A stretch of 64,000 bases of DNA from contig PBMO01000021.1 of the NCBI GenBank assembly GCA_002722595.1, positions 3,217 through 67,216 on the forward strand, in the 5' to 3' direction. Shown here one piece after another: positions 11,553 to 63,505 of this stretch. Positions within the stretch are counted from its first letter, which is position 1, and the number at the start of each line of letters is the position of its first letter. The notes beneath the pieces are model-generated. The model searched no databases. It had not been told where the DNA came from and saw only the letters and a list, made by a program, of their open reading frames with translations. The position numbers and the translations under genes were made by a program. This DNA is from Methanobacteriota archaeon (lineage in GTDB: Archaea; Thermoplasmatota; Poseidoniia; Poseidoniales; Thalassarchaeaceae).

Positions 11553-11587
11553 TTTTTCAATTGGAAAATAGATTTTTCAATTGGAAA
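11553..11587. promoter_or_regulatory. Two exact copies of TTTTTCAATTGGAAA spaced 20 bp apart, followed by the TATA-like TTATAAATA (11596-11604)
   Basis: Read directly: copies at 11553-11567 and 11573-11587. Each has a palindromic CAATTG core. They lie in the 286-nt divergent region between the thiolase gene and the Roadblock gene. Confidence 0.45.
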
Positions 11588-11707
11588 TTAAAATATTATA
11601 AATATGTATTCCAATGGCTAATAATTGCTACGAATCATGGGTTCCAAAGTCTTGTAAAACAGTAAAACACAGTATTTTTCAGTTGGCGAATTAAATTCAC
11701 CCACCAA

Positions 11708-11727
11708 ACGGCCCCCAAAGGGGCCGT
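11708..11727 (+). other. GC-rich hairpin ACGGCCCC-CAAA-GGGGCCGT upstream of the Roadblock gene
   Basis: Perfect 8-bp stem read from the sequence, 55 nt upstream of the ATG at 11782. Function unknown; it could be a 5' leader structure or the end of a short RNA. Confidence 0.4.
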
Positions 11728-11781
11728 CAAGGGGCAAGTTCTTGAAGGCGTATTCTGCCTGAGTGAATCTTGAGGATAACT

Positions 11782-12087
11782 ATGTTGAATCGTTTGCTCT
11801 CAAATATTGAGCAAATAGACGCTTGTCTCATCACAGGTGATGGCCACCAGATTAGTGGTGAAGGTGAAGCAAACATCGATCTATTGCACCAAGCAATGAA
11901 GATGGCAGCATCGCTTGAAATAGGACAGGTTGAAGAAATGTGGTTTGAAGGTGAAGACGTTTGTACAGTCAGGACAATCAAAGGAGGTTGCAGTCTTTGG
12001 TTGAGTAGCAAAACACTTCCCGTAGGGCGTCTGAGTCATGAGGCCCGATTTCTGCAACCAGTAATAGAGGATTTAATTGAGGTGTAA
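11782..12087 (+). CDS. Roadblock/LC7 (MglB-like) domain protein
   Basis: The 101-aa protein shows the Roadblock pattern: IDACLITGDGHQISGEG...DLLHQAMKMAASL...EEMWFEGEDVCTVRTIKGGCSLWLSS...VGRLSHEARFL. GAGGAT lies 5 nt upstream of the ATG. The ORF opens at a TTG at 11770. Confidence 0.7.
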   Translation: MLNRLLSNIEQIDACLITGDGHQISGEGEANIDLLHQAMKMAASLEIGQVEEMWFEGEDVCTVRTIKGGCSLWLSSKTLPVGRLSHEARFLQPVIEDLIEV

Positions 12088-12089
12088 AA

Positions 12090-15000
12090 ATGTTTAATCT
12101 ACCCCCTGGAGATAGTGTCGACGCAGAGATCGATTTGAGCGTAGGTCAAAATCAAATACCGTTTGAAAATGGAGCAATATCTCATTTCAAACCGCGAGCA
12201 AAAACTGCTTGTGCGCATCGTTTGGTTTACGGTGGAGAAGTAGTTGGCTGGATGGCTGAAGCGGAAACTAAGCATACTTTTGTCACCGGAGATGCTGCTA
12301 AGGCAAGGTTGCTAGAACTTGCAGATTCACATGATTTACGTGCAACTGCAGTGTCATGGAACATAGCCCAATTCACCCAAGTAGCTAGGCAGATACCAGA
12401 GTCGTTCTCAGACCCCTCACATCTTGCATCACTTCTCGCTCAAGGCTCAGCAGCGTTACCAATTGACACAAAAGATCTCGCACTACTTGTAGACCGGCTA
12501 ACAGAATCGAAGGAAGTTCTTGGGGCATTAGCTTTTGAAGAAGGAGTCGTGATACATCATGCTGGTGAATTGCCATCTACGCCCGAGGACCTTGCAATTA
12601 CCGGCCAAGAACACCTCAGTGGTATATCTGAGAAATTCTCTCAGCCAGAGTCTCTATCTGCCAACTTACGTCTTGAAGGTGGACAACTGATGCTTACAGA
12701 AGCAGGGCAAGCATCTGTTGCAATTTGGTGCCGCCATGGTTCCGATGCTCAAGCAATACTTTCGAATGCGGCCACTTTAGTTGGAGATGCTGAAGAGAAT
12801 TTAGATTTGGATTCTGATGAACTTCCAGCGGGCTTCATCACCAAAGAATCGAAGTCAGGGGTCGACCAACTTCTTTCCCACCTTCGTTTAGCACACGATG
12901 ATAGGGTAACCGGATACATCACCTCTATTTCAGATACTGATGAGCCGATTTTGATTACTCTAGTAGACGGTGTGCCCAATGGAATCAGGGGTACAAGTGG
13001 AAGTGAATTGAGTGATTTAGTGCACACAATGACAACTTCATCTAGAAGGCTACAATCGCATCGATTAGAACGCCGTGCTAAATTAGGTCTGTATGGTTCG
13101 ACAGTGGAAGACTTTTCTTTGGCCCATATGGTTGATACGATATCTAATTGCAGGACTCGTTCTGATGAGAGGAAGAAACTCGTATTAGGGAGGTTAGAAA
13201 CTCTACTTGGTTTTGATTTAGGACTAGAATCGATGGAATCAGGGCGAAGGTCTTGGAAAATCCTCGAGAGCAATGCCACAACTGCTAAGGTAACTTCTGA
13301 TGAACCTGAAGAAGTGGACAATAAAACCAAATTGATGCCAGTATCCAGTGAAAAAGTGCTTACTCCTATTGCAGGAGAAATCAAGAAAAGACTGGAACAA
13401 TTGGAACACAGTCTCATATCCTTAGAGCGTGAGAAAGCAAGATTAGAGCGTGAATTAAGTGATGCTAGAGCAGCACGTGACGATGCTAGGGATGCTAAAC
13501 ATGAATTGGAAGCAGCTCTAGCAGATGCGCGAGACCAACGTAGCGAATTGCACAGAGAAATAGATGATTTATCAGCAAAGGTTAGAACCACACAGATTCA
13601 AAATGATGAGGCGAACTCAATTTCAGACAGACTTTCCAAGAGAATATCAGAATTGGAACATATGGTGGAAAAGAGGGCCGAAGAACTAGCGAGTGCATTA
13701 GGTGAATTCGATTCTCGAGAAGAACTACTTTCTGACTTGAGAGAACTATCAAATCAAGAAGCCACCATAAAGTCAGAATTGAGTGCAGCAGATGTTCGGC
13801 TAGACGAGGTACGTAAGTCACTTGACCATGACGAAAGATTACAGAGAGTATTGACAGAACAAGTGAGTGCACAACGGGATCGTCACCGCACTGGTCAGGC
13901 TGAGATTGACGAATTAGAAAGGAGAATTGAAAGTCAGCGTGCAGAATTGGCTGAACTCGATGCAGAGGGCCATGCCCATCGTCGTTTGATGGAAGAGGAG
14001 AGGGGCCGAATGATGGATTCTGAAAGGAAATCCACCATCATGCAATCTGAACTTCGGGAGATGATGGAAGAGCGTCGGTTATTACTCAGAGAACTTGGTG
14101 ATTTAGATGCGAGGAAGGCCCAATCTGAAACAGAATTACGCATGCTTCTTGAACAAGCTGAAGATTTACAGGAAGCACATGAAATGGCCCTACTTGACTT
14201 ACAGGAAGCAGATCGAATCAGGGCTCGATTAGCAGAAGAACCCCTGGCTCAAGCACTTTTGGGTGATGAACGAGGTCTTTCTAGCCTTGAACCTGTACTT
14301 GACAGAATGGCCAATGCTAGAAGTAGAGGTTACAGTATAGTATTACTCGATCGTGCAGTTGAACGTGCCTTAACCATCGTCCAACATTGTGTTGATGAGG
14401 TCGCTAAAACTCCACGACACCTTCTTTCAATGGAAGTTATGGAGTTGCTAGAAAGACAGGCACCTGAGACGGCATCAACTGTCAGAGGTCTAACTAGATG
14501 GTCAGTACAATCACGTTTGGAGCATCAACTCGCTGAAACAGTACAACATGTTGTTATTGACTTGGAAGGATTGCTAGATGAGTACGAACGTTCAGTGACG
14601 ATGCTTGCGCAAATGCAAGACGTACTCAGAGCACTAGTAGATCTTGGTCTTCCTTCTGAGGACATAAAGCCACTAGAGCGATTTAGTCACATGCCTGAAG
14701 CATTACCATACATATCAGTTGAAGTGCGTCGTTTAATTCAGAAATCTTTGGATGATATCTATCTAGATGCAGATCGACGGAATGCGGGTGATGCGGTTGG
14801 CTTGGCTGAAACTGTGGAAGTGTTAGAATCTCTTCTGAGAAGGCTGGATGTAGCAGGATTGACTGGGGAAGAACCACATGGTTCACTTTGGTCTTTCCAA
14901 AAAACAGGAAGTTTGCCATTTGAAGTGGATGGACTTGCTAGACACGAACGTCCTGAAATTAACACAGAAGCTGTTAGGCATATGAATCCGGTAGAAGACG

Positions 15001-15365
15001 TTTCACAGAGCGATATACCCATTATTCAAGGTAATATTACACCATCTGCTCCATCAACACCCACTATTGAGGAAGCAAGTTCGGCTCCTGCATCTAACTC
15101 AACTTGGCAACCAATTGAAGAAGCATCGGAATCAGACGGTGTCGATATTTCGACGAGAATATCAGTTGGATTGATTCCTTCTGACACTCCCGGTTTGACG
15201 GAAGAGGCTGCGCTGATGGCAGATATTGATATGGCTCTCGCAGAAGTTGATTCAGCATCAGATATGCGTGAAGGTACAGAAAATGGGGTGACTCCCCCTG
15301 CAGATCCGGTTAAGAGAGACGCTCTCGATGATTTAGAGCGCGAACTTTCGGACATCGATATGTGA
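12090..15365 (+). CDS. 1091-aa cytoplasmic giant with a Roadblock-like N-terminal region, about 320-aa coiled coil, helical domain and acidic disordered tail
   Basis: It starts 2 nt after the Roadblock stop, with GAGGTG upstream. The segment VLGALAFEEGVVIHHAGEL...LRLEGGQLMLTEAGQASVAIWC is Roadblock-like. An uninterrupted E/R/L/A/D heptad-like region spans nt about 13360-14330. The tail is S/T/P/D/E-rich. No TM helix or signal peptide is present. Confidence 0.8.
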   Translation: MFNLPPGDSVDAEIDLSVGQNQIPFENGAISHFKPRAKTACAHRLVYGGEVVGWMAEAETKHTFVTGDAAKARLLELADSHDLRATAVSWNIAQFTQVARQIPESFSDPSHLASLLAQGSAALPIDTKDLALLVDRLTESKEVLGALAFEEGVVIHHAGELPSTPEDLAITGQEHLSGISEKFSQPESLSANLRLEGGQLMLTEAGQASVAIWCRHGSDAQAILSNAATLVGDAEENLDLDSDELPAGFITKESKSGVDQLLSHLRLAHDDRVTGYITSISDTDEPILITLVDGVPNGIRGTSGSELSDLVHTMTTSSRRLQSHRLERRAKLGLYGSTVEDFSLAHMVDTISNCRTRSDERKKLVLGRLETLLGFDLGLESMESGRRSWKILESNATTAKVTSDEPEEVDNKTKLMPVSSEKVLTPIAGEIKKRLEQLEHSLISLEREKARLERELSDARAARDDARDAKHELEAALADARDQRSELHREIDDLSAKVRTTQIQNDEANSISDRLSKRISELEHMVEKRAEELASALGEFDSREELLSDLRELSNQEATIKSELSAADVRLDEVRKSLDHDERLQRVLTEQVSAQRDRHRTGQAEIDELERRIESQRAELAELDAEGHAHRRLMEEERGRMMDSERKSTIMQSELREMMEERRLLLRELGDLDARKAQSETELRMLLEQAEDLQEAHEMALLDLQEADRIRARLAEEPLAQALLGDERGLSSLEPVLDRMANARSRGYSIVLLDRAVERALTIVQHCVDEVAKTPRHLLSMEVMELLERQAPETASTVRGLTRWSVQSRLEHQLAETVQHVVIDLEGLLDEYERSVTMLAQMQDVLRALVDLGLPSEDIKPLERFSHMPEALPYISVEVRRLIQKSLDDIYLDADRRNAGDAVGLAETVEVLESLLRRLDVAGLTGEEPHGSLWSFQKTGSLPFEVDGLARHERPEINTEAVRHMNPVEDVSQSDIPIIQGNITPSAPSTPTIEEASSAPASNSTWQPIEEASESDGVDISTRISVGLIPSDTPGLTEEAALMADIDMALAEVDSASDMREGTENGVTPPADPVKRDALDDLERELSDIDM

Positions 15366-15375
15366 GGTATGTGCC

Positions 15376-15624
15376 TTGGCTAATTTTGAAGAAACCCTTA
15401 CTCTCAGGCAGGAGACACATGGTAAGAGTTATCCAAATTGGTTAGAGAAGATAGGTTTCGTAGTTGCGTTATCCCTCTCAATTTATTGTGGCTATTGGCT
15501 TTGGCAGAAATCTGATTTACCCGATATCATATTATGGTTCAGCACATTTTGCCTTCTCCCAATATTCACCCTTCTGTTAGGTGAAACCATCGCTAGGATG
15601 ATACATTTTTCACAGAAATCCTGA
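15376..15624 (+). CDS. Small 2-TM membrane protein (82 aa)
   Basis: TTG start with GAGGT 7 nt upstream, 10 nt after the giant gene. Two hydrophobic helices are present (IGFVVALSLSIYCGYWLW and ILWFSTFCLLPIFTLLLG). Confidence 0.5.
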   Translation: MANFEETLTLRQETHGKSYPNWLEKIGFVVALSLSIYCGYWLWQKSDLPDIILWFSTFCLLPIFTLLLGETIARMIHFSQKS

Positions 15625-15625
15625 A

Positions 15626-16882
15626 TCATGGATTCGAATTGCCTTTCTTGTTTAGAGCGGCTTCGATTAATCCAGAAACCCTTTGCCATGGTACGATATA
15701 TTTGAGTCCAGCTACAAATGTAAGGAACAGCATAGCTGAAATCACTTTACCATAAGTAAGTCGTAATTCTAATGATTCCTTAACTTGACCACTCCACTGC
15801 CCAGAACCAGTCCAACCTACAACATCAATGATGAGGTCATCGAATTTAAGGGCAAGCATTGTCACAAAACCTACTGCGAAAATCACAACGACAGTATGCT
15901 GCATATGTGTATTCAGAATACTTTGGAATTGGCGCACATATTCTGGGTCTTTCTTGCAAGATTCAGGAAGCCGGAATGCATACTCGAGAAACCTGATTGT
16001 TGCATGAGCAGTTTCAGAATATAACATCAACAAAACGGCAACAAGTAGCAATTCCCAAACTTGTCCAGAGATAAGGCCGCCAAGTGTGTCAGTTTCACCG
16101 ATTTGAGTTGGAAGTGGATTCAATCCAGGAGCATTTGGGTTACTCACACTTGAGAGAAGGGCCACGATTCCTTCGTAAGATAGAAGGGCGTACAAACCAA
16201 GGAAAACTAGAATGTATGCCATCGACCAATTAATCATCCGCTTCGATAGGCCCCAAATCCCCATCAAGCCAAATAGGACTGGAGCTAGGTAGAAAAGAAC
16301 GATTAGCAATTGGATATACACAGATAACGGCCAAATCAAATGATTAGCGTGATTGAGTGAATCATCTGCATTTCCAAAGGGCCAATATAGTTCGAATTGA
16401 GTAATCATCCCAAATGTCCATGTTAGAATGAACATTCCAGCAAGGAATAGGATCATTGAACCCAATAATGCAAGTGTAATTTTTCGTCGGCGGGCTGGTG
16501 GCTGGAAGTTCAGTGCCACCCAACCTGCTGCTATCACCATGCAGAGAATAATTGGAACGTAATAGCGTCCATCACCTTGGTTCCCTAGCCCAGTCACCCA
16601 ATTGGGTATAGGTAATTTTTCAAACGCCCCCCCTTCTGAAAAACTCATTTCAATTTGAGCAAGGGTCAGCGTATGATCTAGCGCAGGACACCATTCACCG
16701 CTAGCAATGTAATCTGGATGACAGTAACCAAAGATACGAGTTAAAGTTAGGAACAACCAGATTAGTGCAATACTTGCTACCAGTTGCAAACCAACAACTC
16801 GCCACTCCTTTCTCAGAGTGCGCAGATGAAGGGTAATTAGCCCCTCTTCCTGTTGAGCAACATCTTCTGCCATTTTCACCAC
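15626..16882 (-). CDS. Polytopic membrane protein (about 9 TM), unknown function
   Basis: Hydrophobic helices run throughout. The start lies 1 nt after the DUF58 stop. No recognisable motif. Confidence 0.7.
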   Translation of the reverse strand: MVKMAEDVAQQEEGLITLHLRTLRKEWRVVGLQLVASIALIWLFLTLTRIFGYCHPDYIASGEWCPALDHTLTLAQIEMSFSEGGAFEKLPIPNWVTGLGNQGDGRYYVPIILCMVIAAGWVALNFQPPARRRKITLALLGSMILFLAGMFILTWTFGMITQFELYWPFGNADDSLNHANHLIWPLSVYIQLLIVLFYLAPVLFGLMGIWGLSKRMINWSMAYILVFLGLYALLSYEGIVALLSSVSNPNAPGLNPLPTQIGETDTLGGLISGQVWELLLVAVLLMLYSETAHATIRFLEYAFRLPESCKKDPEYVRQFQSILNTHMQHTVVVIFAVGFVTMLALKFDDLIIDVVGWTGSGQWSGQVKESLELRLTYGKVISAMLFLTFVAGLKYIVPWQRVSGLIEAALNKKGNSNP

Positions 16883-16883
16883 C

Positions 16884-18134
16884 CTACATTTTCACCTGTA
16901 ATAACGCCTGACTAAGTTCTACATCTGGCATCCAGTCAATCACTCTTGCACCATATCCTGCAACTGCAGACAATCTGTTCTGTCTCTCCAATTTCATTAC
17001 TTCATAGGACATTCTTGGTATGCGGCTAACAAGCCGCTCATAATCAATACTTGATGGGCTTAGAACCACAACTTCGTGACCCCGTCCTGCTAAATCACGA
17101 ATTGCGTGGGGAACAGTACCATCTCCTTCAAGGCTTGATATAATGAAAACAGGGCTTCCACGACTAAATCTAGGAGCCAACGAATTAGTAACAGCCTGTA
17201 GTGGCATATCACCTTTAGGTGCTACTCCAGCTAGGCTAGATAGGACCTTGAAATACTGTTTATCCCCTCCGTCTGCTGGCAGATATGAAAGACTGTCATC
17301 ATAAACAGCCAGTGCAATAGCATCCCTTCTCTTGATAAAATATGATGCTAAACTAGCTGCGGCAACAGTTCCCATTTCGAGTGGATTTTTTAGAACAGTT
17401 CCAATTCTACTGATGTCTCGAGAATCAAGGAGGATGAATACATCAGTAACAGCATCCCGGCATTTTTCATTGACCATCATTACCCCTGTACGGGCAAATG
17501 CTTTCCAGTTGATAATCTTGAATGGATCGCCTGGAACATATTCTCTCAGCGAGTAGAATTCAGAACCCGGACCTGGAGTTCTTAGTGTCATTGCACCAGT
17601 GTACATTTTCGGTGTTCGACTGCGAATCATAGCCTCCTCTATTTCACGTACTTGTGGGAATACGATTAACCCCGAACGATGGTCAATATACATCTCTTGG
17701 CTGAATAGGTTGAACGTGTTTCTGTATCGTACAGAGACGGGGCCGAAAGAATAGTGGCCACGTAGGGGGCATCTCAGAACATAACGAATCCTAGTTGTTT
17801 CACCCGGGCCGAGATTGACTCGCATGTAGTTAAGCCCACTTCTGAGTTTCATTTCATGAGGAACATTGTCGAAGACTTCCAGTTGCTGAGTCCTTCTAAA
17901 CGAACTATTTGTGATTGCCAATTCGACATACAAATCATCACCTTTGTACAAATTGTCTGCTGATAATGTTCTAACAATCTCTAGATTTCCATGGCCAGAT
18001 ACCCATGAATTTATTGCAAGGAATGCAATGAACATGAGGCCTAATATCATCAATTGGAAGTTCGCTATCATCATACCAATGAGAACTAAGGAGATTCCAG
18101 ATGTTAGCAACAATGCTGCTTTACGGGTCCACAT
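16884..18134 (-). CDS. DUF58 family protein (vWA-like fold, two N-terminal TM helices)
   Basis: DUF58 signature LREYVPGDPFKIINWKAFARTG. N-terminal helices LLLTSGISLVLIGMMI and LMILGLMFIAFLAINSW. The ATG shares one base with the upstream TAA (TAATG). Confidence 0.8.
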   Translation of the reverse strand: MWTRKAALLLTSGISLVLIGMMIANFQLMILGLMFIAFLAINSWVSGHGNLEIVRTLSADNLYKGDDLYVELAITNSSFRRTQQLEVFDNVPHEMKLRSGLNYMRVNLGPGETTRIRYVLRCPLRGHYSFGPVSVRYRNTFNLFSQEMYIDHRSGLIVFPQVREIEEAMIRSRTPKMYTGAMTLRTPGPGSEFYSLREYVPGDPFKIINWKAFARTGVMMVNEKCRDAVTDVFILLDSRDISRIGTVLKNPLEMGTVAAASLASYFIKRRDAIALAVYDDSLSYLPADGGDKQYFKVLSSLAGVAPKGDMPLQAVTNSLAPRFSRGSPVFIISSLEGDGTVPHAIRDLAGRGHEVVVLSPSSIDYERLVSRIPRMSYEVMKLERQNRLSAVAGYGARVIDWMPDVELSQALLQVKM

Positions 18135-19849
18135 TACTTACGCCCCCACATCTTTACACGCTTCACAACAGCAACTAATTGTTCCAAACTATAATTCCGA
18201 TCTTCAAACACGAATTTGATTAATACCGGATCACCAATCATTTTCTGTAACTCTCTAGCAGGCAATGCATCGAATTCATCCCTTGTTAAGGAATTCAGGT
18301 TCCTAACCCGTGATAGCAACACTTGTTTCACTTTATTCGCCCGGCCATAATAGCCATATCGTCTTGCATCTCCAAACCCGTAGTAAATGATACTGAACAC
18401 GTGTCGCCATGGTTCGGGATCAGTTTTCTTGATGATAACTGCCTCAAATGCAATAAATAGAGCAAGGAAAAGGAACAGCATAGCCATCCAATCATTTGTA
18501 AAGTAAACAAGAACGTAGTAAATTAGGTTGTACGTGTCACCCATTGCGCTAGTTTGTTGATGTCTACTTTCATCGAATATTACCTGTTTCCCGAGCCCAG
18601 ATGTACCATTAGTGGTATCATCTCCTGTATGCATTAGAAGTGACTCAGCAATTATATCCAATACCCAACGTCGATTGTCATTCATTGGCATTTGTTGACC
18701 ATTTAGTGCACCATATCCTTCTCGATTTGTTTCCTCCCAATCATAGATTGCATTCATCAGGATTGATCCATCTGTGACGAAAATTGCGCGACCCATAGGT
18801 GGCCCATTGGGTCCTTCAGCACAGTCAGTAATGAGACAAACTTTCACAACAGTGGTAAATGGCCCCTGTTCGTCACTTTCAACACCACCTCCCTCGAAAC
18901 CGACATCACCTCGTCCGTCATCATTCGTATCAAGATATGAATCTGGACTTGAGCCACCCAAGGCATACCGCTCGTTTTCTACATCTTCTGCAGACCCCTT
19001 GTCGAATGCCGATGGAGTATTCATTAGTACGTTGTAATTTGTACTAAAGTTCCAAGTAGTCATCCCATTTTCATCAGTTTCTACGTGATGTGCACAAAGA
19101 CCAGCTTCCGCTTCCCAATCAGGGGTATCCTGGGCATTGATTGAACTATCGGGGTCAGCATCCAAGCGATTAATGATACCATCACCATCACTATCAGCGA
19201 GACATGGATGATAACCAGATGTATCGATATCGTCATAAACATAAGGATTAGTCTCATTCATCCAAACATAGTTGTAATCGAGTTCACGTGCCCAAGCCTC
19301 CTCATCATACAGTTGATGTCCACTGTAACCCAAACCAAATTGCTCAGCAAGTCCCGCTGAATATCCAAAATCATCCATTACCAATATGGTTCCGCCAGAA
19401 ATGACATATTCGACTATAGCCTGAATTTCAGTAGTAGAATACCCTTCAGACTCTGCAAAATCAATAACATCAGCATCATTGGTAAATCTCGGAAGAGAAA
19501 TAGTATCTTGTTCAACACCGGTAACGATGAACACAGTATCTTCTGGATTCTCTAATTCGCCTAAGAGTACAGGACTAGAAATCATACTTGTGGTATCAAC
19601 ATCCATTGCTTTCAAATCTTCACGAAAGGCTGAAAGATCATCCCAATCATCGTCATATGCGGACAAATGTGGGTCACTGTCTACGAGATATGAATTAGCA
19701 ACACTCAATAGCAGTAAAGCGAGCACTGCATAGAATGCTAACATCAGCCCTGCGCGCCTAGTTTTGCGGGATTTCAGAAGAGATTTCAGGTCCATTGAAC
19801 CGAATTTCATCAGAGGTCGCCCCTCACATCCTTCGGATGTGTGAACCAT
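18134..19849 (-). CDS. Bitopic membrane protein with a large extracytoplasmic acidic domain, DUF4350-like, carrying a thrombospondin-type-3-like Ca-binding motif
   Basis: N-terminal TM (LMLAFYAVLALLLLSV) and a second TM near residue 455 after VIFDESRH. The DSDGDGIINRLDADPD motif sits at nt about 19150-19200. The DUF4350 assignment is from memory of DUF58/MoxR neighbourhoods. An alternative ATG lies at 19810. Confidence 0.6.
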   Translation of the reverse strand: MVHTSEGCEGRPLMKFGSMDLKSLLKSRKTRRAGLMLAFYAVLALLLLSVANSYLVDSDPHLSAYDDDWDDLSAFREDLKAMDVDTTSMISSPVLLGELENPEDTVFIVTGVEQDTISLPRFTNDADVIDFAESEGYSTTEIQAIVEYVISGGTILVMDDFGYSAGLAEQFGLGYSGHQLYDEEAWARELDYNYVWMNETNPYVYDDIDTSGYHPCLADSDGDGIINRLDADPDSSINAQDTPDWEAEAGLCAHHVETDENGMTTWNFSTNYNVLMNTPSAFDKGSAEDVENERYALGGSSPDSYLDTNDDGRGDVGFEGGGVESDEQGPFTTVVKVCLITDCAEGPNGPPMGRAIFVTDGSILMNAIYDWEETNREGYGALNGQQMPMNDNRRWVLDIIAESLLMHTGDDTTNGTSGLGKQVIFDESRHQQTSAMGDTYNLIYYVLVYFTNDWMAMLFLFLALFIAFEAVIIKKTDPEPWRHVFSIIYYGFGDARRYGYYGRANKVKQVLLSRVRNLNSLTRDEFDALPARELQKMIGDPVLIKFVFEDRNYSLEQLVAVVKRVKMWGRK

Positions 19850-19913
19850 AGACGATTATCCTAACCTTAAGACGGTTTGGGGGAGTTGGGTGCCTTAGTA
19901 TCAGCCAACATTT

Positions 19914-20156
19914 CTAACGATTTAGGTGTATGTCCTCATCAATCGTAGCAACTTCTTCAGTTGGAATCACCAAATGTTCACCTATCACTGACCATGGGAG
20001 TAAATTAGGATCTAATCCATCATCAAGCTCTAGAAGTAGTCCAAGAATATCTCCACTTGTATCATCTAGAAACAAATCTACCACATGGCCCAAGAAATCT
20101 CCGCGATTATCAACAACCCTGCGACCGGATAGTTCCGAAGAGAATGCTGCTGGCAT
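19914..20156 (-). CDS. PRC-barrel domain protein (80 aa)
   Basis: GRRVVDNRGDFLGHVVDLFLDDTSGDILGLLLE...VIPTEEV is the classic single PRC-barrel pattern. It starts 9 nt after the cdc48 stop. Confidence 0.7.
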   Translation of the reverse strand: MPAAFSSELSGRRVVDNRGDFLGHVVDLFLDDTSGDILGLLLELDDGLDPNLLPWSVIGEHLVIPTEEVATIDEDIHLNR

Positions 20157-20165
20157 AGAATCACC

Positions 20166-22391
20166 TTAGACGCTCTCAATTCCCATCAGGGTGTCCGATT
20201 TTCGCCGGATACTTTCCAACCCACTGGTCAGTAACCCCTCGAGTTTTGTGTAGTACTCAATCATATCAGGTGTGATAGTCGGCCTCACTCGGGCAATCGC
20301 CTCTTCAAAGTGCTTTTTACTGACGGATTTTCGTTCTGCCCTCATTGCGATAAGTGCAGCTTCCCGACACACTGCTTCGACATCTGCACCAGTAAAGTTC
20401 TGCATAGAATCTGCAAGACTCTCCAGGTCAAACTTGCCCAGTGGCATATCTTTCGCATGAATTTTCAATATTTTTCTTAGGCTGGCATGGTCAGGTGGTG
20501 GGATGTGTAGGACACGTTCGAATCTACCACTCCTGAGTAATGCAGGGTCAATCATTTCTGGACGATTGGTTGCTGCAATAACTATGACGCCTTCCATCGC
20601 CTCAACTCCATCCATGCTTGACAACATTTGATTCACAACTCTATTAGATACATCACTACCTTCTCCAGAGTTCGCAGTTCTAGCTCCTGCAATTGATTCG
20701 AATTCATCAAGGAAGATGATACTAGGACTGGATTGTTTCGCTTTCTTGAACACTTCTCGGATAGCCTTCTCTGACTCACCAACCCATTTAGAAATCAATT
20801 CTGGCCCCTTTACGGTGATGAAATTCGCTTTTGCCTCGTTAGCAATTGCCTTTGCGATTAGCGTTTTACCAGTACCTGGTGCGCCAAATAGAACAATGCC
20901 TCGTGGTGGTTTTATCCCGAAATGCTCAAATCGATCCGGCATAGTCAATGGCCATTCAACACTCTCCTTTAGGCGGTCTTTGACTTCTTCTAAACCACCA
21001 ACATCATCCCAAGAAACTTCTGGGACCTCAACATAAATTTCTCGAAGGGCACTTGGTTCAATTTCACGGATTGCCAAACGGAAATCTCCCATTTGGACCT
21101 CCATCTTTTCGAGTACTTCAGGTGGGATTTCATCTTGATCTAAATCAATCTCTGGAAGGTATCGGCGAAGCGCCTTCATTGCTGCCTCACGGGTGAGACT
21201 CATGATATCTGCACCGACGAATCCATACGAATTTTCCAAAATCCATTCCATATCAAAGTCATCCGAAATTGGCATACCTCGAGTGTGTATATTCACAATC
21301 TCTCTACGACCATTCTTGTCTGGAACTCCGATTTCTAGTTCACGATCAAATCTCCCAGGTCGACGAAGGGCTTGATCAATAGCATCAGGCCTATTTGTTG
21401 CACCAATGACAACAACATTATCCCTGCCTTGCATTCCATCCATTAGAGTCAAAAGTTGTGCAACAACTCTGCGCTCAACTTCACCTGAGACATCTTCACG
21501 CTTGGGTGCGATTGAATCCAACTCATCGACGAAGATAATAGCTGGTGCATTTGAAGCAGCCTCATCAAATATTTCTCGTAGTTGCTTTTCAGATTCACCG
21601 TAGTACTTGGAAATGATTTCAGGCCCATTGATACTAGTAAAATGTGCATTCGTTTCATTAGCAACAGCCTTAGCAATCATGGTTTTACCAGTGCCAGGTG
21701 GTCCATGGAGTAAAACGCCCTTAGGCGGATCAATACCTAGTCTTCGAAATAGAATAGGATGCTTAAGTGGTAACTCAATCATCTCTCTCACTTTGAGCAA
21801 TTGGTCTCCAAGTCCCCCAATATCTTCATACATAATTGACGATACTTCTCCTGATTCCTCATCCTCAACCATTTCCTCTTTGATTACAATTTCTGTATCG
21901 GGAAGGACTCTCACTATGCCCTTAGGCCGAGTTGACACGATTGCAAACGGCAATGCTTCTGCAAAGAGTGTCATTCCAGGGATAAATATCCTATCTCCTG
22001 CAACCACTGGTCGCTTGTTTAGACCTCTTCTAGCAAAGCCTTCAATTCCTGAACCAAATTTGACTTTCTGCTGTTTTGCCATTACTGGACTTAGTATAAG
22101 CCTCTCACAATCAGAAGCTTCAACTTTGTTGATAGTAACACGGTCGCCAAGGCCAACTCCGGCATTCTTTCGAATAATCCCGTCGATGCGAATAACGCCA
22201 AGATTCGCGTCTTCTGGCCTACATCGCCAAACGATTGCTGCTGTGGTCCTCTCGCCCTTTATCTCGATAACATCTCCAGGTTTGAGTCCCAAATCATTGT
22301 CAAAAGGGACTCTTGCCCGCCCATGTCCAACATCGCTAGGTATCGCTTTTGCAACTCGCAGAGATAGTGTCTTTTCTTCATCATCAGCCAT
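20166..22391 (-). CDS. cdc48: Cdc48/VCP-like AAA+ ATPase (double-psi-barrel N domain plus D1 and D2)
   Basis: Two Walker A motifs ([16 protein letters not shown]), two Walker B motifs ([16 protein letters not shown]) and SRH regions. The start is placed at [13 protein letters not shown], with GGAGG 7 nt upstream. The ORF opens at 22442. Confidence 0.95.
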
Positions 22392-22534
22392 GTAATAGCC
22401 TCCAGAGCAAAGGGTGGATTCACTTCCCCTCCTAAAACCCATTCATTTCTTATTCTGGTTAAACCCCAGTCTGAGGGTTAGTCTTCAAGCGCCGAGATGC
22501 GAGGATTCATGATGGGGTTTGCACTCGACGAGAT

Positions 22535-35517: not shown

Positions 35518-36156
35518 TCAGAATCGGCGTTTTCTATGTTGCCGTGTACAATCTACGCCGGGAAATTGGTCTTCAGTTTCACGGTACACAGTTTTCAGAT
35601 TTTTCACAAATTTCTCATCTCGGACTAAAAGAACGAAATCTTTGACACCTGGGTCTTCTTCAGCATCTAACCAACCAAGAAGGATTTCCATTGTCATTCT
35701 TGCACCTTCACGATGTGGGTACGCATAAATCCCCATTGAAAGCGGTGGACAAACCATTGTTTCAACGGTTCCCAAGGCCTTTACTTGCTCAAACATGGCT
35801 TCGTATGATTTACGAATTAATTCTCTTCGTCCTTCATCTTGACTTGGCCTCCGGCAATCTGGCCCGACTACATGAATAAGATGCTCATGTGGTAAATCAA
35901 AAGCTGAAGTCGTTACTGCAGTACCTACTGGACACGGCTGCATATTTTTTGCACGTTGTGCCTTACTAATTTCGATACACTTTTCCCGCAACTTTTCTCC
36001 AGCAGCTGTGTGCATTTTAGCATCTAAGCCTTCCCGGCCAGCTAATCTGTTGTTCGCACATGTGACTGCAACCTGTGCCTCATATCGAGTCAAATCTCCA
36101 GGTATCACACGAAGTAGTGAATGACGGCATTGCCTAGCGATGATAACGTCCGCCAT
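35518..36156 (-). CDS. Macro domain protein (ADP-ribose binding/hydrolase family)
   Basis: VTCANNRLAGREGLDAKMHTAAGEKL...CPVGTAVTTSAFDLPHEHLIHVVGP matches the macro-domain core (N..L..G.G.d..i..aaG...G.a..t.....l....iiH.vGP). The start is placed at the ATG at 36156. The ORF opens at 36192. Confidence 0.8.
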   Translation of the reverse strand: MADVIIARQCRHSLLRVIPGDLTRYEAQVAVTCANNRLAGREGLDAKMHTAAGEKLREKCIEISKAQRAKNMQPCPVGTAVTTSAFDLPHEHLIHVVGPDCRRPSQDEGRRELIRKSYEAMFEQVKALGTVETMVCPPLSMGIYAYPHREGARMTMEILLGWLDAEEDPGVKDFVLLVRDEKFVKNLKTVYRETEDQFPGVDCTRQHRKRRF

Positions 36157-36286
36157 ACTTCGACAGGGGGGGGCGGTGTGCTTTATGCCCATCGCCGATT
36201 TATGTCAATTGGATACCATTATTCAACATAATGCAGCCTCATCAAACTGCCGACATTGTCAAAAGTTGATTGATAGGGCCGAGTTT

Positions 36287-39200
36287 GTGCACCGTCGTTC
36301 GGCGATCATCCTCGCCCTTCTCTTCACGTTACAGAGTTGGTCTTCTATGCCCCTCTCTGAGGAGGAAATAATCCACTCTAGCGTAGGGGAAGAGATATCT
36401 TTTCGAGACATTGCAGTAGTTGAACCCTTTTCTCACCAAACATTCGCAGATTACAGTGATGTTGCAGTTGTAATCAATAATCAGAGTACTGAAAGTAGAA
36501 TAATCGGCACCGCATTTGCACTTGCTCGTAATATATCTCCGGAGCGTGTTTTCTTGTTAACAAATGAAAGCACACCCACTGGAGAAACCATCAACTCAAA
36601 TCAATTTACTGATTATTTCTCTAATCCGATTTCGCAGATGATTTCAGAACGGAATTTGACCGATTTGAATGTTCTTGTTACAACCAAAGGAGTCCCCCTT
36701 CGGGTCAATGGAGGAACAAATTCTCGTGCGTCATTTGATTCTGAATTAGCCCTGATTAATGGTCCCTATGCATCATCTATTTTTGCTGATTGGAATGTTA
36801 ATTCAAACTATGGTTTGGCAGCAGGAAATGAGATGAAAGCATTCGACCGAAGTGAACAAGGATACTATCTGGTCACGCGATTGACTGGCTACGATGTAGA
36901 GACCGCATTGGGTTTAATCACCAAGACGAACAACAGTTTTGGGCAACATGGATTGAGCGTTCTGGATTTGGCAACAAATAGGAATGGTTCAGGATACAAA
37001 TGGTGGAATGACCTGTTATACACAACCAATGAAACACTGACGAATATGGGATTCCCAGTCCATTTCAATCAAAATAGTACTTATGTTACCAATATGGAAA
37101 ATGTCTCGATGTATGCTGCTTGGGGAAGTAATGATGGTTCTTGGGGCAACAATCAATTGGCGAATTCTGGTTACGATACATCAGATGGAAGTTGGTCGAC
37201 AGGGTCACGATACTGGGATGGTGTTGGCCCATCATTGTCCTCTGGTGAACAGTGGTGGTGGACGCGTCAAACCGAAACAAAGAGGAATGGAAATGCAGCC
37301 ATGGAAGGTCGTCTTGAGGATGCGCCTTGTGGAGCAAACGATGCCTCGATTACAAATGGTTTGCTCGCAGAATACTTCGACAACAATGGCGTCTCTTACA
37401 ATGTGAGCACAATGGTAAACCTCTCAGGTAGAACGCCCGATTTTGTGCGTCATGAACCGAATATTGATTGGCCCTCTACACAGAGTGCTTGGACTGGTTT
37501 AGATAGCCGCTTCCTTGAGTATTGGAGTGCGCGACATAGTGGAATCATTCACATTCCAACCGCTGGTAATTGGACCTTCTATCTACGGAGTGATGATGGT
37601 TCAAAACTGTGGATTGATGACGCGGAAATAGTTGACAATCAAGGACATCACGCCATGCAAGAGAGATCAGGGACAGTTTGGCTTGATGCAGGAGAGCACC
37701 ATCTTCGTACCGAATTTTTTGAGCATGGAGGGTATGCTGGACTAGAGCTCAAATGGGAAGGGCCAGGGATCTCAAAACAAACTGTTCCAAATAACGTATT
37801 GACTCGAGGAAGTAGTTCCCCCGTCAGAGAGGCGGAGTTAATTCATCATTGGGATTTCAACGAAGTTAGCGGTGATGTTGCAAACGATTCAATCGGTTCG
37901 GCCCACCTGAATTTCACAGGAACCAATGGTTCTCAATGGCGCACTTGTGTGCTAGGTAATTGTGCATTCTTCGATGGTATAGATGATGAAGCCAGGGTCG
38001 ATGTAGATGATATGGTATCGGATTTCACAGTGAGCATGTGGATTCAGGCAAACCATAGTGGCCAATCTCGCCACTCGTCTGCAATCGCCGTGAACGATGT
38101 GGCAGGTGATGATGATTCATTCCAGTTCCAGACGAGTGGGGGGAATCCTGGGAATTGGGAATTATATCACAACAATTCGTACAGCTTTGGAACCGTTGAT
38201 CACACCGTTTGGCAACACCTTGTCGCCACATTTTCCAATGACACAATCACGCTTTACATGGATGGATTTGAGGTACTCAATCAAAGTGTGCCCAATGGTA
38301 CCGTGAATAGTATTGAAATTTACAAATTCGGTGTTAACAGAGCAGGGAATACACATTTCGCTGGCGTGATTGATGAGGTACAGATTTGGGAAACCGCCCT
38401 AAATTCTGAGGAAGTGGCAGATGTCCATGATGAAATCGTTTGGATTTGTCCATCATTCGATAGTACCAACAACTCCGTTGCTTATGTTGAACAAACTGCC
38501 AACCTTGTGGAGTCCGGCGATCCACTTGATGGCAACCACGCTTGGGTTCTTGATGGATATTCGATGAGAGAAGGATGGGTCGAAGGTGACTGGTGGTTAG
38601 AGGTAGAAACATTTGATGCAAATGGAACCACACTATCCATCAATAGGTCAGATACACGTTCCTTTTCAGATGATTGGCAAAATAGGCAACTTCGCTTCCG
38701 ACCGGGTATACAAGCAACAAGTTTCTCAGTTCGCCAAGTTGCAGAATTTTCTGACGGGACATACAACGGTTCAATTTTCTTTGATACATTGAAACTTTAT
38801 CCAATAATTCCTCATTTCACATGGTTAGATGGGAGTATCGCTGAAACTGCTGTTAGTACTGGTGGACGCACATTTGCCCTTAACTCAAGTTATGGACAAA
38901 GTTTGATTTCGGACCTACTTGATGATGGCGTTTCAGGTGTGAAGGGATATGTGTACGAACCATATCTAACGGCGGTTTCAAATCCTGAACAATTGCTTTC
39001 GTGCTATGCTGATGGGTATACAATGTCAGAATGTTATGCTGCTTCGAATACCATGCTTTCTTGGATGGGTACAGTGGTAGGGGATCCAAAAATGGCAGCT
39101 TTTGGTGATCGTTTACACGATATCAACATCTCTGATGTTTACGCACCAAACAGGCTTTCAGTTGGAGAGAATGGTACTTTAGAGGTTCTTTTAGAAAACC

Positions 39201-62361: not shown

Positions 62362-63453
62362 ATGGCGGACGAGGACCTCGACACGATTGAGAACATCTTC
62401 GCCAAAGACATGGATAGGCTTCTAGCTGCCAGAGAAGAGTTGGACAGCGCTCCTCCAGAGGAACCGGAATCAGTTGCAGATGCTTTTGAAATAGCAACTA
62501 CGCCACTTCCACCCGGCCCTCCTACTCCAGATCCTTTGACGCCCCCAACTGGACCTCCATCACCACCTCCTGGCCCCCCAGAATCAGATCCTCTGTTAGC
62601 CCCACTAGGGCTTCCATCTGCACCTGCAAGTCAGCCTACTTCTGCTCCCCCACCTGGCGTATTTGGAGCTCCACCTGGGCCACCTCCTAGTGGCCCTCCA
62701 TCATCGCCACCAGGCCCTCCATCTGCACCGCCGATGGATGCGATGCCTCCCGGTCCACCCGCGCCTCCATCTGCACCGCCGATGGATGCGATGCCTCCCG
62801 GTCCACCAGGTCCTCCATCTGCACCATCGATGGATGCGATGCCTCCCGGCCCACCAGGTCCTCCATCTGCACCGTCGATGGATGCGATGCCCCCCGGTCC
62901 ACCAGGTCCTCCATCTGCACCGCCGATGGATTTGCTCCTCCAAGGTGAACCCACTTCAATCACAGATATTTCTCAATTAGTAAATGAGATGGATAATGAA
63001 ATGTCTGATGCACCAGATCTATCTTCAGAATCACATATGGATGCATTGCTATCTGCAATGCCCTCAAGCCCCCCTCTAGTCGAAGAGATTTCAGAAGCCC
63101 CGCCTTCAACCCTCACTGATCACTTTGAAGAACCAGGTCCAGTTATACCAACCACTCCTCGCTTTGACAGAGTTGACATTGACTCATGGGATTCGAATTG
63201 GGGTGAAGATTGGAAGGAGGATGCCAGTGTGTTTGTTTCCGAAGATACGGGGCAGGTTCCAGCAGCTGTTCAAGACGATGTTGAATGGGACTCAGAAGCG
63301 GGCAGTGAACAGGAATTACAAATTGAAGAATCTCTCCCCAATAAATCTACTTTGAACCGTATGAAGAAGGCTGAATTGGTTTCTCTAGCAGAAAGTCATG
63401 GAGTAGAAGCCACTGGTACAAAAGCGCAAATCATCGAGCGTCTGCTATCTTGA
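62362..63453 (+). CDS. Cytoplasmic proline-rich repeat protein with a C-terminal SAP/HeH (Rho-N-like) DNA/RNA-binding motif
   Basis: No signal peptide or TM helix. About 190 aa are PPGPP-rich, including five MDAMPPGPPGPPSAP units, followed by an acidic linker. The C-terminal LNRMKKAELVSLAESHGVEATGTKAQIIERLLS fits the SAP pattern (L..lkv.EL...l...Gl...G.K..LI.RL). Confidence 0.75.
   Translation: MADEDLDTIENIFAKDMDRLLAAREELDSAPPEEPESVADAFEIATTPLPPGPPTPDPLTPPTGPPSPPPGPPESDPLLAPLGLPSAPASQPTSAPPPGVFGAPPGPPPSGPPSSPPGPPSAPPMDAMPPGPPAPPSAPPMDAMPPGPPGPPSAPSMDAMPPGPPGPPSAPSMDAMPPGPPGPPSAPPMDLLLQGEPTSITDISQLVNEMDNEMSDAPDLSSESHMDALLSAMPSSPPLVEEISEAPPSTLTDHFEEPGPVIPTTPRFDRVDIDSWDSNWGEDWKEDASVFVSEDTGQVPAAVQDDVEWDSEAGSEQELQIEESLPNKSTLNRMKKAELVSLAESHGVEATGTKAQIIERLLS
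62707..62931 (+). repeat. Coding tandem repeat, 48-bp unit x about 4.7 copies
   Basis: Units begin at 62707, 62755, 62803, 62851 and 62899 (CCACCAGGYCCTCCATCTGCACCRYCGATGGATGCGATGCCYCCCGGY). They are in frame and encode PPGPPSAP(P/S)MDAMPPG. Confidence 0.9.
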
Positions 63454-63488: not shown

Positions 63489-63505
63489 CGGCCCCGTAGG
63501 GGCCG
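63489..63505 (+). other. GC-rich hairpin CGGCCCC-GTA-GGGGCCG between the SAP-protein gene and thrS
   Basis: 7-bp stem read directly from the sequence. It lies 36 nt after the upstream stop and is followed by GGAGG and the thrS GTG. The stem sequence is nearly identical to the hairpin at 11708-11727. Confidence 0.4.

Follow-up and report, generated by a model that had tools for sequence, protein, structure and literature searches.

A Poseidoniales-specific operon that may encode a Ragulator-like, membrane-anchored scaffold built on Roadblock modules

An undescribed operon in Poseidoniales

A Poseidoniales-specific operon is proposed here, as the likeliest of the readings considered, to encode a Ragulator-like scaffold complex that is built on Roadblock modules and anchored in the membrane. 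In Ragulator, an extended anchor protein holds Roadblock heterodimers at the membrane (PMC10933270). The components of such a complex, two Roadblock modules and a protein with two transmembrane segments (2-TM), are present in the archaeal operon, and their assembly is what is proposed. The small Roadblock-giant-82-aa gene triplet, an undescribed operon, is laid out as follows in the window (the whole 64-kb stretch of DNA that was analysed):

11772-11775, + strand, GAGG Shine-Dalgarno motif of the small Roadblock gene
11782-12087, + strand, small Roadblock/LC7 gene (101 aa, ATG start)
12090-15365, + strand, giant-protein gene (1091 aa, ATG start)
15376-15624, + strand, 82-aa membrane-protein gene (TTG start)

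The three ORFs, with gaps of 2 nt between the small and giant genes and 10 nt between the giant and 82-aa genes, lie exactly where the preliminary description of this DNA had placed them. The GAGGTG in attGAGGTGtaaaaATG falls within the final two codons of the small Roadblock gene and is 5 nt upstream of the giant ATG, and tGAGGTatgtgccTTG is found directly upstream of the 82-aa ORF. An alternative TTG start of the small gene occurs at 11770. The tight coupling claimed from these gaps is borne out elsewhere, as 70 of the 72 loci that have the small gene show a small-to-giant gap of 0-9 nt; the exceptions are L022 (20 nt) and L017, an unreliable estimate in which the giant ORF is interrupted.

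The region upstream of the operon contains several elements:

11553-11587, no strand assigned, two copies of TTTTTCAATTGGAAA with 20-nt spacing and a CAATTG palindrome in each, in the divergent TtuA/operon intergenic region
11674-11700, + strand, promoter-like box ATTTTTCAGTTGGCGAATTAAATTCAC, BRE/TATA-like (locus alignments)
11709-11726, + strand, GC-rich hairpin/palindrome (C)GGCCCC-CAAA-GGGGCC(G)
11735-11747, + strand, conserved box CAAGTTCTTGAAG, 35-42 nt upstream of the start codon in all clades

Both CAATTG cores are kept in 13 MGIIb loci, and the TTTTTCAATTGGAAA copies are candidate transcription-factor sites. In alignments, the CAGTTGG core of the ATTTTTCAGTTGGCGAATTAAATTCAC box is retained order-wide, and the box is a putative promoter. 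The hairpin arms show compensatory changes between clades, with at least 10 distinct arm sequences among 71 loci, over which the mean z is -3.1 relative to shuffles; the window holds 2 copies against 0 expected by chance, and a comparison with Rfam gave no match.

Distribution and synteny

Throughout Poseidoniales (241 species genomes), the triplet is conserved in both MGIIa and MGIIb, which bears out the neighbourhood conservation required by the earlier proposal. Among 81 related loci spanning MGIIa and MGIIb, the small gene is present in 72, and eight of the nine loci that miss it are cut at or just upstream of the giant 5' end. In the ninth, L051, the small gene is reduced to a 38-codon remnant beside an intact giant, which suggests that the small protein may be dispensable, or may reflect an error in that MAG. 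The TM gene is present in 76 of the 81 loci and missing where loci end at the 3' side. A block consisting of TtuA, the small-giant-TM triplet and mem418-DUF58-p571-PRC-CDC48 is retained in MGIIa and MGIIb, while distal genes vary. Because gene order is conserved across this whole region, the conserved neighbourhood of the triplet carries less weight than it would where genes are frequently rearranged.

The giant family was undetected outside Poseidoniales in a HMMER protein search and among the 80 best genome loci, which come from Poseidoniales MAGs, from unclassified marine (eury)archaeal MAGs and, in one case, from a contig assigned to a bin of the bacterium Yoonia. When the N-terminal profile of the giant was run exhaustively with HMMER over 1.84 billion representative proteins, just 56 matches were returned. 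They either measure 1020-1090 aa and align along the full N-terminal profile or are shorter, in which case they are most simply read as fragments. The preliminary description had missed this confinement to a single order.

The small Roadblock protein and its membrane-protein neighbour

The small protein is a true Roadblock/LC7 protein by its fold and its orthologues. The 101-aa window copy itself has no Pfam match at E<=10, and PF03259 was found in 10 of 17 diverse orthologues (best 8.4e-8), so that this profile is a feature at the family level only; the Roadblock/LC7 assignment first made for the window copy stands on this orthologue evidence and on structure. Compared with the PDB, the family profile matched a Thorarchaeota Roadblock (7f8m, 5.5e-11), 7yh1 (1.9e-6) and MglC (1.4e-4), an MglB paralogue that is itself no GAP, with MglB at about 0.01. 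The best AF2 model (pLDDT 90.4, the remaining four reaching only 44-67) displays the a-b-b-a-b-b-b-a topology of the Roadblock fold (H-E-E-H-E-E-E-H) and resembles LAMTOR, MglB, MglC and Asgard Roadblock structures. Almost all of the top Foldseek matches listed are Roadblock-superfamily structures (TM 0.6-0.78).

The 2-TM partner described earlier is real: two hydrophobic segments are present in the 82-aa protein and likewise in 68 of 77 family members, and TM segments were found in neither the small protein nor the giant. It carries a conserved N-terminal motif, L.GR.E..G..YP..LE, and a weak, sub-threshold match to DUF6768. Its gene adjacency makes it a candidate membrane anchor.

Architecture of the giant protein

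The four-part architecture originally outlined for the giant, with a putatively helical third part, holds and shows the following features:

12090-12404, + strand, residues 1-105, invariant N-terminus MF.LP.G, then beta-rich domain A (b-b-b-b-a-b-a)
12468-12794, + strand, residues 127-235, domain B, canonical Roadblock/LC7 (a-b-b-a-b-b-b-a; AF2, Foldseek, Pfam, profile)
12816-13109, + strand, residues 243-340, domain C (b-a-b-b-b-a; AF2 topology, low confidence)
13368-14240, + strand, residues 427-717, coiled coil (Pro-free span, heptad-type periodicity)
14241-14969, + strand, residues 718-960, orphan C-terminal domain (~240 residues)
14970-15314, + strand, residues 961-1075, variable-length acidic linker, S/T/P/D/E-rich
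15315-15365, + strand, residues 1076-1091 and stop codon, C-terminal amphipathic peptide

The AF2 model of the N-terminal part has a mean pLDDT of 60, with block values of 53-59 over residues 1-20 and 75-85 over residues 21-100. Residues ~127-235 are a Roadblock/LC7 domain, confirming the internal Roadblock-like segment that had been suspected. In addition to its AF2 topology, this segment has 94 Foldseek matches at E<=1e-3, those listed being almost all Roadblock (target TM up to 0.82); two Pfam searches of orthologues found PF03259 in 4 of 13 and in 3 of 12, respectively, and CvnB5 (PDB 3leq) is the best match of the giant profile for this domain among solved structures (2.9e-4). No profile similarity between the small-protein family and the giant Roadblock domain was detected by hhalign. 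Domain C (block pLDDT 31-69), which gave no match at the sequence level, is tentatively considered a possible truncated Roadblock-like module. Once phylogeny was regressed out, the small protein showed its highest residual-distance correlations with domain C (0.47), then B (0.42), and the TM protein with domain A (0.39), then the small protein (0.38); these values are a suggestive hint at co-evolution of the operon proteins.

The coiled coil is present, but at ~290 residues (its Pro-free span) it is somewhat shorter than the ~320 aa initially claimed. Its 291 residues without Pro show a strong 3.5-residue hydrophobic periodicity and are rich in E (17%), L (14%) and R (14%); Gly-containing breaks are conserved at about residues 538 (ALGEF) and 670 (RELGDLDAR). 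Long coiled coils of similar composition are found in SMC and Rad50, and the giant weakly matches NCBIfam SMC, Rad50 and ASRP models and the PADLOC LmuB/JetC models, while JGI labels one orthologue a 'predicted nucleic acid-binding Zn-ribbon protein'. It is nonetheless extremely improbable that the giant takes part in chromosome organisation as a coiled-coil protein of an SMC/Rad50-like or nucleoid-associated type. These matches are confined to residues ~420-848, mostly coiled coil, and score at most 34 bits against cut-offs of 300-1087. The giant has no hinge, no Walker motifs and no P-loop, and its whole-length profile finds no ATPase head in Pfam or the PDB. An SMC/Rad50 identity is thus effectively refuted, and the giant is no ATPase fragment of that type. 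Nucleoid positioning, which had been suggested as a function, is also unlikely for a giant whose net charge is about -83 and whose folded parts are all acidic or neutral (C-terminal domain, -17). A role as an anti-phage defence protein was rejected as well, the PADLOC matches being weak and restricted to the coiled coil, and the gene belonging to the syntenic core of the order, not to a variable island. The three outcomes named beforehand as fatal to the original proposal (no Robl_LC7 match, no conserved neighbours, an SMC/Rad50 fragment) were none of them what was found, the small protein of the window being recognised as Roadblock only by its fold and its orthologues.

The C-terminal domain contains the motifs LLDRAVER.L, TPR.LLS, VRGLTRWSVQ, RPEALP and LW.FQ..G.LP.E. 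It has no Pfam or PDB match, and a k-mer profile search with it turned up nothing but fragments from this Poseidoniales family. The MGIIb and MGIIa sequences are 55% identical over this domain and 37% over the whole giant. The domain and the end peptide (54% identity across families) are the slowest-evolving parts, and among the folded parts the small protein (21%) and the giant Roadblock domain (26%) evolve fastest. The intervening linker, with 13% identity, numerous indels and a net charge of -17, is the variable acidic tail described previously and is presumed to be disordered. The end peptide, (R/D).AL..LE..L(S/A)DL(D/E)-hydrophobic-COOH, is present in all 61 full-length giants and is a candidate docking motif. 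Neither this peptide closing the acidic tail nor the concentration of the strongest constraint on it and the C-terminal domain, instead of the Roadblock modules, had been noticed before.

The conserved end peptide also bears on a rather improbable alternative, in which the giant is an adaptor or substrate recruiter for adjacent AAA+ machinery and the peptide docks on CDC48 or another member of its cluster. That equally conserved, convergent cluster comprises a 418-aa membrane protein, DUF58, a DUF4350-like protein, a PRC-barrel protein and CDC48. Retention of the TtuA-to-CDC48 block amid varying distal genes, and the 1-nt gap between the two convergent units, are consistent with such a link. 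However, convergent units are not co-transcribed, and their conserved adjacency may merely reflect low rearrangement in a compact genome; to our knowledge, the peptide fits no known CDC48-binding motif.

Is a GTPase involved?

The characterised prokaryotic Roadblock proteins MglB and CvnB work with small GTPases, and of 449 MglA genes, 390 have a coupled MglB gene (PMC4316618). A second alternative, which is unlikely, holds that the operon encodes a GTPase-regulator module whose Roadblock pair serves an MglA-, Arf- or Rag-like small GTPase, encoded elsewhere in the genome, as its GAP, GEF or docking platform, while effector functions or localisation would fall to the coiled coil and the C-terminal domain. 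It overlaps the scaffold proposal, the sole difference being that a GTPase is required. The Roadblock/LC7 identity of both modules argues for it, as do the precedent of MglB and CvnB and the weak profile matches to MglC, CvnB5 and MglB. The genomic context argues against it. A Walker A scan of the 64-kb window found real motifs only in CDC48 (two), and Pfam identified no GTPase family in any window ORF of at least 120 aa, confirming the earlier statement that no small P-loop GTPase is encoded there. No ORF with G1, G3 and G4 motifs occurs in a total of about 1 Mb of flanking sequence from the 81 related loci; an MglA-family GTPase within a few genes, as expected of an MglB-type system, is thus found neither in the window nor in these flanks.

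The significance previously attached to the absent neighbour was overstated. In a survey of 1,611 genomes, 328 of 749 MglB homologues (44%) were 'orphans' without a coupled GTPase (PMC4316618). Orphan Roadblock genes are therefore common, and a missing neighbouring GTPase is unremarkable in itself. Some Roadblock or longin proteins also have roles unrelated to GTPases, which, like the uncoupled homologues, weighs against the need for one here.

Comparison with known systems

Among solved structures, the Asgard Roadblocks (Thor-RB 7f8m, MK-D1 RB 7yh1, 9jue) are closest to the small protein by both profile and fold. These are homodimeric scaffolds, but they are encoded by stand-alone genes in GTPase-rich hosts and have no link to a coiled-coil giant or 2-TM gene. 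MglB and MglC (with RomY) of the Myxococcus xanthus/Thermus polarity module are similarly small prokaryotic Roadblock proteins; the GTPase MglA is the coupled partner of MglB, whereas no GTPase lies near the Poseidoniales operon, and neither MglB nor MglC is fused to a coiled-coil giant. The Streptomyces conservon (CvnA-D), whose CvnB5 best matches the giant Roadblock domain in sequence, is a membrane-associated complex that contains a sensor kinase-like membrane protein and the GTPase CvnD, both absent from the Poseidoniales operon. In layout, the giant resembles FrzS/AglZ-type polarity proteins of Myxococcus, in which a small N-terminal regulatory domain precedes a very long coiled coil. That domain is a receiver domain and not a Roadblock, and we know of no sequence relationship beyond the similar layout.

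Ragulator (LAMTOR1-5) combines paired Roadblock subunits, an extended membrane anchor and the role of a recruitment platform, pairing and anchoring being what we infer for the Poseidoniales proteins. LAMTOR2/p14 chains top the Foldseek matches listed for both the small protein and the giant Roadblock domain, and Ragulator has truncated and full Roadblock modules together, the former perhaps paralleled by domain C. Homology is limited to the shared fold, at 10-20% identity. The Ragulator anchor is a lipidated wrap-around peptide, whereas the candidate anchor in Poseidoniales is a 2-TM protein; the operon further encodes a coiled coil of 290 residues and an orphan domain, and no Rag-like GTPase is known as its partner.

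A possible membrane-anchored scaffold

Dimerisation through helix alpha-2 and the edge of the beta-sheet is characteristic of Roadblock/LC7 proteins, and the solved domains (MglB2, LAMTOR2/3, Asgard Roadblock) are dimeric, so the small protein probably pairs with the Roadblock domain of the giant or with its Roadblock-like domain C. The small protein could instead form a homodimer, or pairing could take place inside the giant, between domains B and C. The cytoskeletal or polarity scaffold envisaged in the preliminary description is conjectural. The Roadblock platform might regulate an NTPase encoded at another place in the genome. In the Ragulator-like scaffold proposed here, the coiled coil would dimerise the giant and, as a rod or spacer, span up to ~40 nm. 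The 2-TM protein would tie the assembly to the cytoplasmic membrane, as LAMTOR1 does for the Roadblock dimers of Ragulator, and the slowly evolving C-terminal domain and end peptide would recruit a conserved cellular partner.

Gene organization and genomic setting

The window, from a Thalassarchaeaceae (Marine Group IIb, MGIIb) archaeon, is ordinary chromosomal DNA, with genes including pyrBI, ttuA, CDC48, thermosome, DnaK, sdhAB, and CTP synthase, and the base composition across the operon region shows nothing unusual. The three ORFs lie exactly where the preliminary description placed them.

Features of the operon region (window coordinates)
11553-11587, direct repeat TTTTTCAATTGGAAA, two copies, 20 nt apart, between ttuA and the divergently oriented operon
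11674-11747 (and equivalent positions in the related loci L001-L081), leader composed of a box, a hairpin, and a second box
11782-12087, plus strand, small Roadblock gene, 101 aa
12090-15365, plus strand, giant gene, 1091 aa
15376-15624, plus strand, transmembrane (TM) gene, 82 aa, TTG start
15626-22442, minus strand, convergent cluster encoding a 418-aa polytopic membrane protein, DUF58, a 571-aa DUF4350-like protein, an 80-aa PRC-barrel protein, and CDC48

At the junction of the small and giant genes, attGAGGTGtaaaaATG, a GAGGTG motif falls within the small gene's final two codons, 5 nt ahead of the giant start; 3' of the giant stop, GAGGT is followed by the TTG start of the TM gene 10 nt on. 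Related genomes keep these neighbors together, as a conserved operon would require. Among 81 related loci the small gene is directly upstream of the giant in 72, with a gap of 0-9 nt in 70 of them, and the TM gene is directly downstream in 76, the misses being loci cut at their 3' end. In eight of the nine loci lacking the small gene, the sequence is truncated at the giant's 5' end or shortly before it. The real exception is L051 (1866-2889), in which a methyltransferase-like gene stands between ttuA and the operon and the small gene is a 38-codon remnant next to a 1024-aa giant resembling the homolog P0077; the remnant reflects either natural loss or an artefact of the metagenome-assembled genome (MAG). 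An apparent small-giant fusion, P0044 (574-kb ENA contig, …EDLIEGVTMFNLPPG…), stops in frame again 20 residues into the giant and is best explained as an assembly artefact: the long-read contig would carry a 1-nt indel.

The block common to both families, MGIIa and MGIIb, consists of ttuA (minus), the operon (plus), and the convergent CDC48 cluster (minus), with variable genes further out. The cluster, which we take to resemble a MoxR-type accessory set with CDC48 adjoining in place of MoxR, abuts the operon with a 1-nt gap; no family was assigned to its 418-aa membrane protein. The giant could possibly serve as an adaptor for this CDC48/DUF58 cluster, for which conserved adjacency is the sole argument. 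Elsewhere in the window (36140-41422), a 1760-aa ORF with PA14 and Laminin_G_3 (concanavalin-like) domains probably encodes a large surface adhesion or glycan-binding protein typical of Marine Group II (MGII).

Restriction to the order Poseidoniales

An exhaustive HMMER search of 1.84 billion representative proteins with a profile of the giant's N-terminal 400 residues returned only 56 proteins. The long ones (1020-1090 aa) align over the entire profile; for the shorter ones, the simplest reading is that they are fragments. Neither this search nor a C-terminal k-mer profile search found anything outside the Poseidoniales family. When one genome per GTDB species was scanned, relatives appeared in 241 genomes. 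The best 80 of these come from Poseidoniales MAGs or from marine (eury)archaeal MAGs that are unclassified, plus one contig binned as Yoonia, and include Thalassarchaeaceae at 42-79% identity and Poseidoniaceae at 37-40%. The window giant itself is 100% identical to a protein of a ‘Candidatus Thermoplasmatota’ MAG. The contig binned as the bacterium ‘Yoonia sp.’ (L058, CAXRJJ010000006.1) holds the full Poseidoniales operon with its syntenic neighbors and is almost certainly mis-binned.

The small Roadblock protein

That the small protein belongs to the Roadblock/LC7 family is sound, on the strength of its fold, the Pfam matches of its orthologs, and family-profile matches rather than of any Pfam match to the window copy. 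Pfam gave no match for that copy or for 17 close relatives, and a profile built from close relatives matched no PDB sequence. The AF2 model has the Roadblock topology a-b-b-a-b-b-b-a, with a pLDDT of 90.4 in the best model and only 44-67 in the other four, owing to a shallow alignment. Nearly all of the top Foldseek matches in the PDB are Roadblock-superfamily chains (E from 2e-4 up, TM 0.6-0.78), including LAMTOR2/p14, a Streptomyces Roadblock, Asgard Roadblocks, MglC, and MglB. Among orthologs gathered across the order, 10 of 17 diverse sequences match PF03259 (best 8.4e-8), and the family profile matches solved structures of a Thorarchaeota Roadblock (5.5e-11) and an MK-D1 Roadblock (1.9e-6), more weakly those of MglC (1.4e-4), CvnB5 (7e-3), and MglB (about 0.01). 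The protein of the window's own MGIIb clade is a divergent, shortened version, at 101 aa vs 107-116 aa elsewhere.

Domain architecture of the giant

AF2 resolves residues 1-420 of the giant into three alpha/beta modules (mean pLDDT 60, folded cores about 75-85).

N-terminal modules of the giant (AF2)
Residues 27-101, domain A, b-b-b-b-a-b-a
Residues 127-230, domain B, canonical Roadblock a-b-b-a-b-b-b-a
Residues 249-314, domain C, b-a-b-b-b-a, low confidence

The Roadblock-like segment proposed for this region corresponds to domain B. Besides its topology, Foldseek gives 94 PDB matches at E<=1e-3, the top ones listed being nearly all Roadblock proteins; PF03259 is matched in 4 of 13 and 3 of 12 giant orthologs in two sets; and the full-length family profile matches CvnB5 at 2.9e-4 over profile positions 132-237. 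An hhalign comparison detected no similarity between the small family and domains A, B, C, and D or the C-terminal domain (probability <=1.2%), a null that is uninformative because the small family and domain B each separately match Roadblock profiles. The modeled domain C may be a truncated Roadblock of the sort seen in LC7/LAMTOR4-5. Residues 245-300 looked similar to DUF4388/PATAN, but no giant scanned has such a Pfam match (E<=1 or E<=0.1), and that reading was dropped.

Residues 427-717 are a coiled coil: a 291-residue stretch without proline (17% E, 14% L, 14% R, 11% A), whose hydrophobic 3.5-residue periodicity is three- to fivefold stronger than in the remainder of the giant, with conserved glycine-containing breaks near residues 538 and 670. 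The giant is not an SMC/Rad50 fragment, an identity that would have undone the preliminary description. It has no Walker A motif, and the SMC, Rad50, and ASRP models cover mostly the coiled coil, scoring <=34 bits vs cut-offs of 300-1087. Its net charge of about -83, with each folded part acidic or neutral, argues against DNA binding. Beyond the coiled coil, residues 718-960 make up an orphan domain, rich in invariant positions, that has no relative in Pfam or the PDB, and residues 961-1075 vary in both length and sequence. The last 16 residues are again conserved, (R/D).AL..LE..L(S/A)DL(D/E)(L/M/I/F), ending acid-hydrophobic-COOH. A MIT-interacting motif (MIM1) fits the +4/+3 leucine spacing of this peptide, but the arginine is out of register and non-conserved and the ending is acid-hydrophobic rather than basic; the peptide is treated only as a generic amphipathic docking peptide.

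The TM protein and rates of evolution

Two hydrophobic segments are present in the window 82-aa protein and in 68 of 77 family members; segments of this type are absent from the small and giant proteins. Its N-terminal ~25 residues hold the conserved motif L.GR.E..G..YP..LE. Comparison with MGIIa (Poseidoniaceae) reveals uneven rates among the parts of the operon.

Identity of each part, window vs MGIIa
C-terminal domain of giant, 55%
Terminal peptide of giant, 54%
Coiled coil of giant, 41%
Domain A of giant, 38%
Domain C of giant, 31%
TM protein, 28%
Roadblock domain B of giant, 26%
Small Roadblock protein, 21%
Linker of giant, 13%

With coiled-coil and C-terminal distances regressed out as a proxy for phylogeny, the residual distances of the small protein correlate most strongly with domains C (0.47) and B (0.42), and those of the TM protein with domain A (0.39) and the small protein (0.38); these values fit co-evolving contacts but, since the distance pairs are not independent, are weak evidence for them.

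A conserved leader upstream of the operon

A stretch of about 110 nt ahead of the small gene is conserved across the whole order. Within this leader lie a BRE/TATA-like box (core CAGTTGG), a GC-rich hairpin or palindrome, and a CAA..TTCTTGAAG box fixed at 35-42 nt from the small gene's ATG. The hairpin arms vary from clade to clade (CGGCCCC/GGGGCCG, TCCCCCC/GGGGGGA, CGTCC/GGACG, CGCCC/GGGCG, and others), with changes that are fully compensatory (71 loci, mean z -3.1). No Rfam family matched the leader, and RNAalifold found no structure because the hairpins are not in register in the MAFFT alignment; per-sequence folding was substituted. The leader may act as a new cis-regulatory RNA or as an operator, the choice between RNA and DNA roles for the hairpin depending on the transcription start.

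Two copies of the hairpin pattern are present in the window, whereas chance would predict 0. The second copy, GGCCCCgtaGGGGCC (63490-63504), is 37 nt past the stop of a SAP-domain ORF and has a GGAGG motif directly downstream; it lies 15 nt ahead of the GTG at 63520, which is the likely start of an ORF that resembles threonyl-tRNA synthetase (weak TGS match) and runs off the window end. The SAP-domain ORF (62362-63453) encodes a 363-aa protein in which extended Pro-rich tandem repeats (PPGPPSAPPMDAM...) are combined with a SAP domain at the C-terminus (27.6 bits, Pfam cut-off 23.9), an unusual combination for an archaeon. Further upstream of the operon, each TTTTTCAATTGGAAA copy contains a CAATTG palindrome, and both cores are kept in aligned related MGIIb loci; the repeats are likely candidate transcription-factor sites.

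Possible function and significance

As had been noted, the 64-kb window encodes no small GTPase, and none turned up in the roughly 1 Mb that flanks the 81 loci; a partner could be encoded elsewhere in a Poseidoniales genome. The lack of a neighboring GTPase is not exceptional: 328 of 749 MglB homologs in a large survey were uncoupled from one, none of them characterized at that time (PMC4316618). The operon would add a case to the question, posed in 2014, of the role of such ‘orphan’ Roadblock/MglB proteins.

In the mechanism we infer, the small protein would pair with either the Roadblock or the Roadblock-like module of the giant, the coiled coil would dimerize and space the complex, the 2-TM protein would hold it at the membrane, and the slowly evolving C-terminal domain and peptide may bind a conserved partner. 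Ragulator is closest in logic, its Roadblock heterodimers being kept at the membrane by LAMTOR1; the closest proteins in sequence are stand-alone Asgard Roadblock proteins, CvnB, MglC, and MglB. A bolder proposal, which we regard as improbable, is that Poseidoniales own a lineage-specific, GTPase-independent, Ragulator-like membrane scaffold made of a Roadblock heterodimer, a ~40-nm coiled-coil rod, and a 2-TM anchor; through the orphan domain and terminal peptide it would organize a conserved cellular process, with division-site, envelope, or organelle-like positioning as examples.

The Roadblock fold is familiar, as are orphan Roadblock genes, and the operon by itself overturns nothing; Roadblock domains are common in archaea, and the operon's function is one that we infer. 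What is new is the architecture of Roadblock, Roadblock-like module, 290-residue coiled coil, orphan domain, and terminal peptide with dedicated Roadblock and 2-TM partners, together with the operon's status as a signature of the order. All sources that name these proteins call them ‘hypothetical’, save one coiled-coil-driven JGI label, and nothing relevant came from literature searches that paired Poseidoniales or Marine Group II with Roadblock or small GTPases.

Poseidoniales, the dominant planktonic euryarchaea of surface waters, rank among the most abundant archaea of the sunlit ocean. No member is known to have been brought into pure culture, so genomes alone are the source of what is inferred about their cell biology. 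An order-specific large gene in at least 241 Poseidoniales species genomes, uniting a eukaryote-style scaffolding fold, a long coiled coil, and a membrane partner, offers a concrete entry point to that biology. If true, the GTPase-independent scaffold would represent a novel type of cytoskeletal or positioning system in archaea, perhaps under the control of the conserved structured leader.
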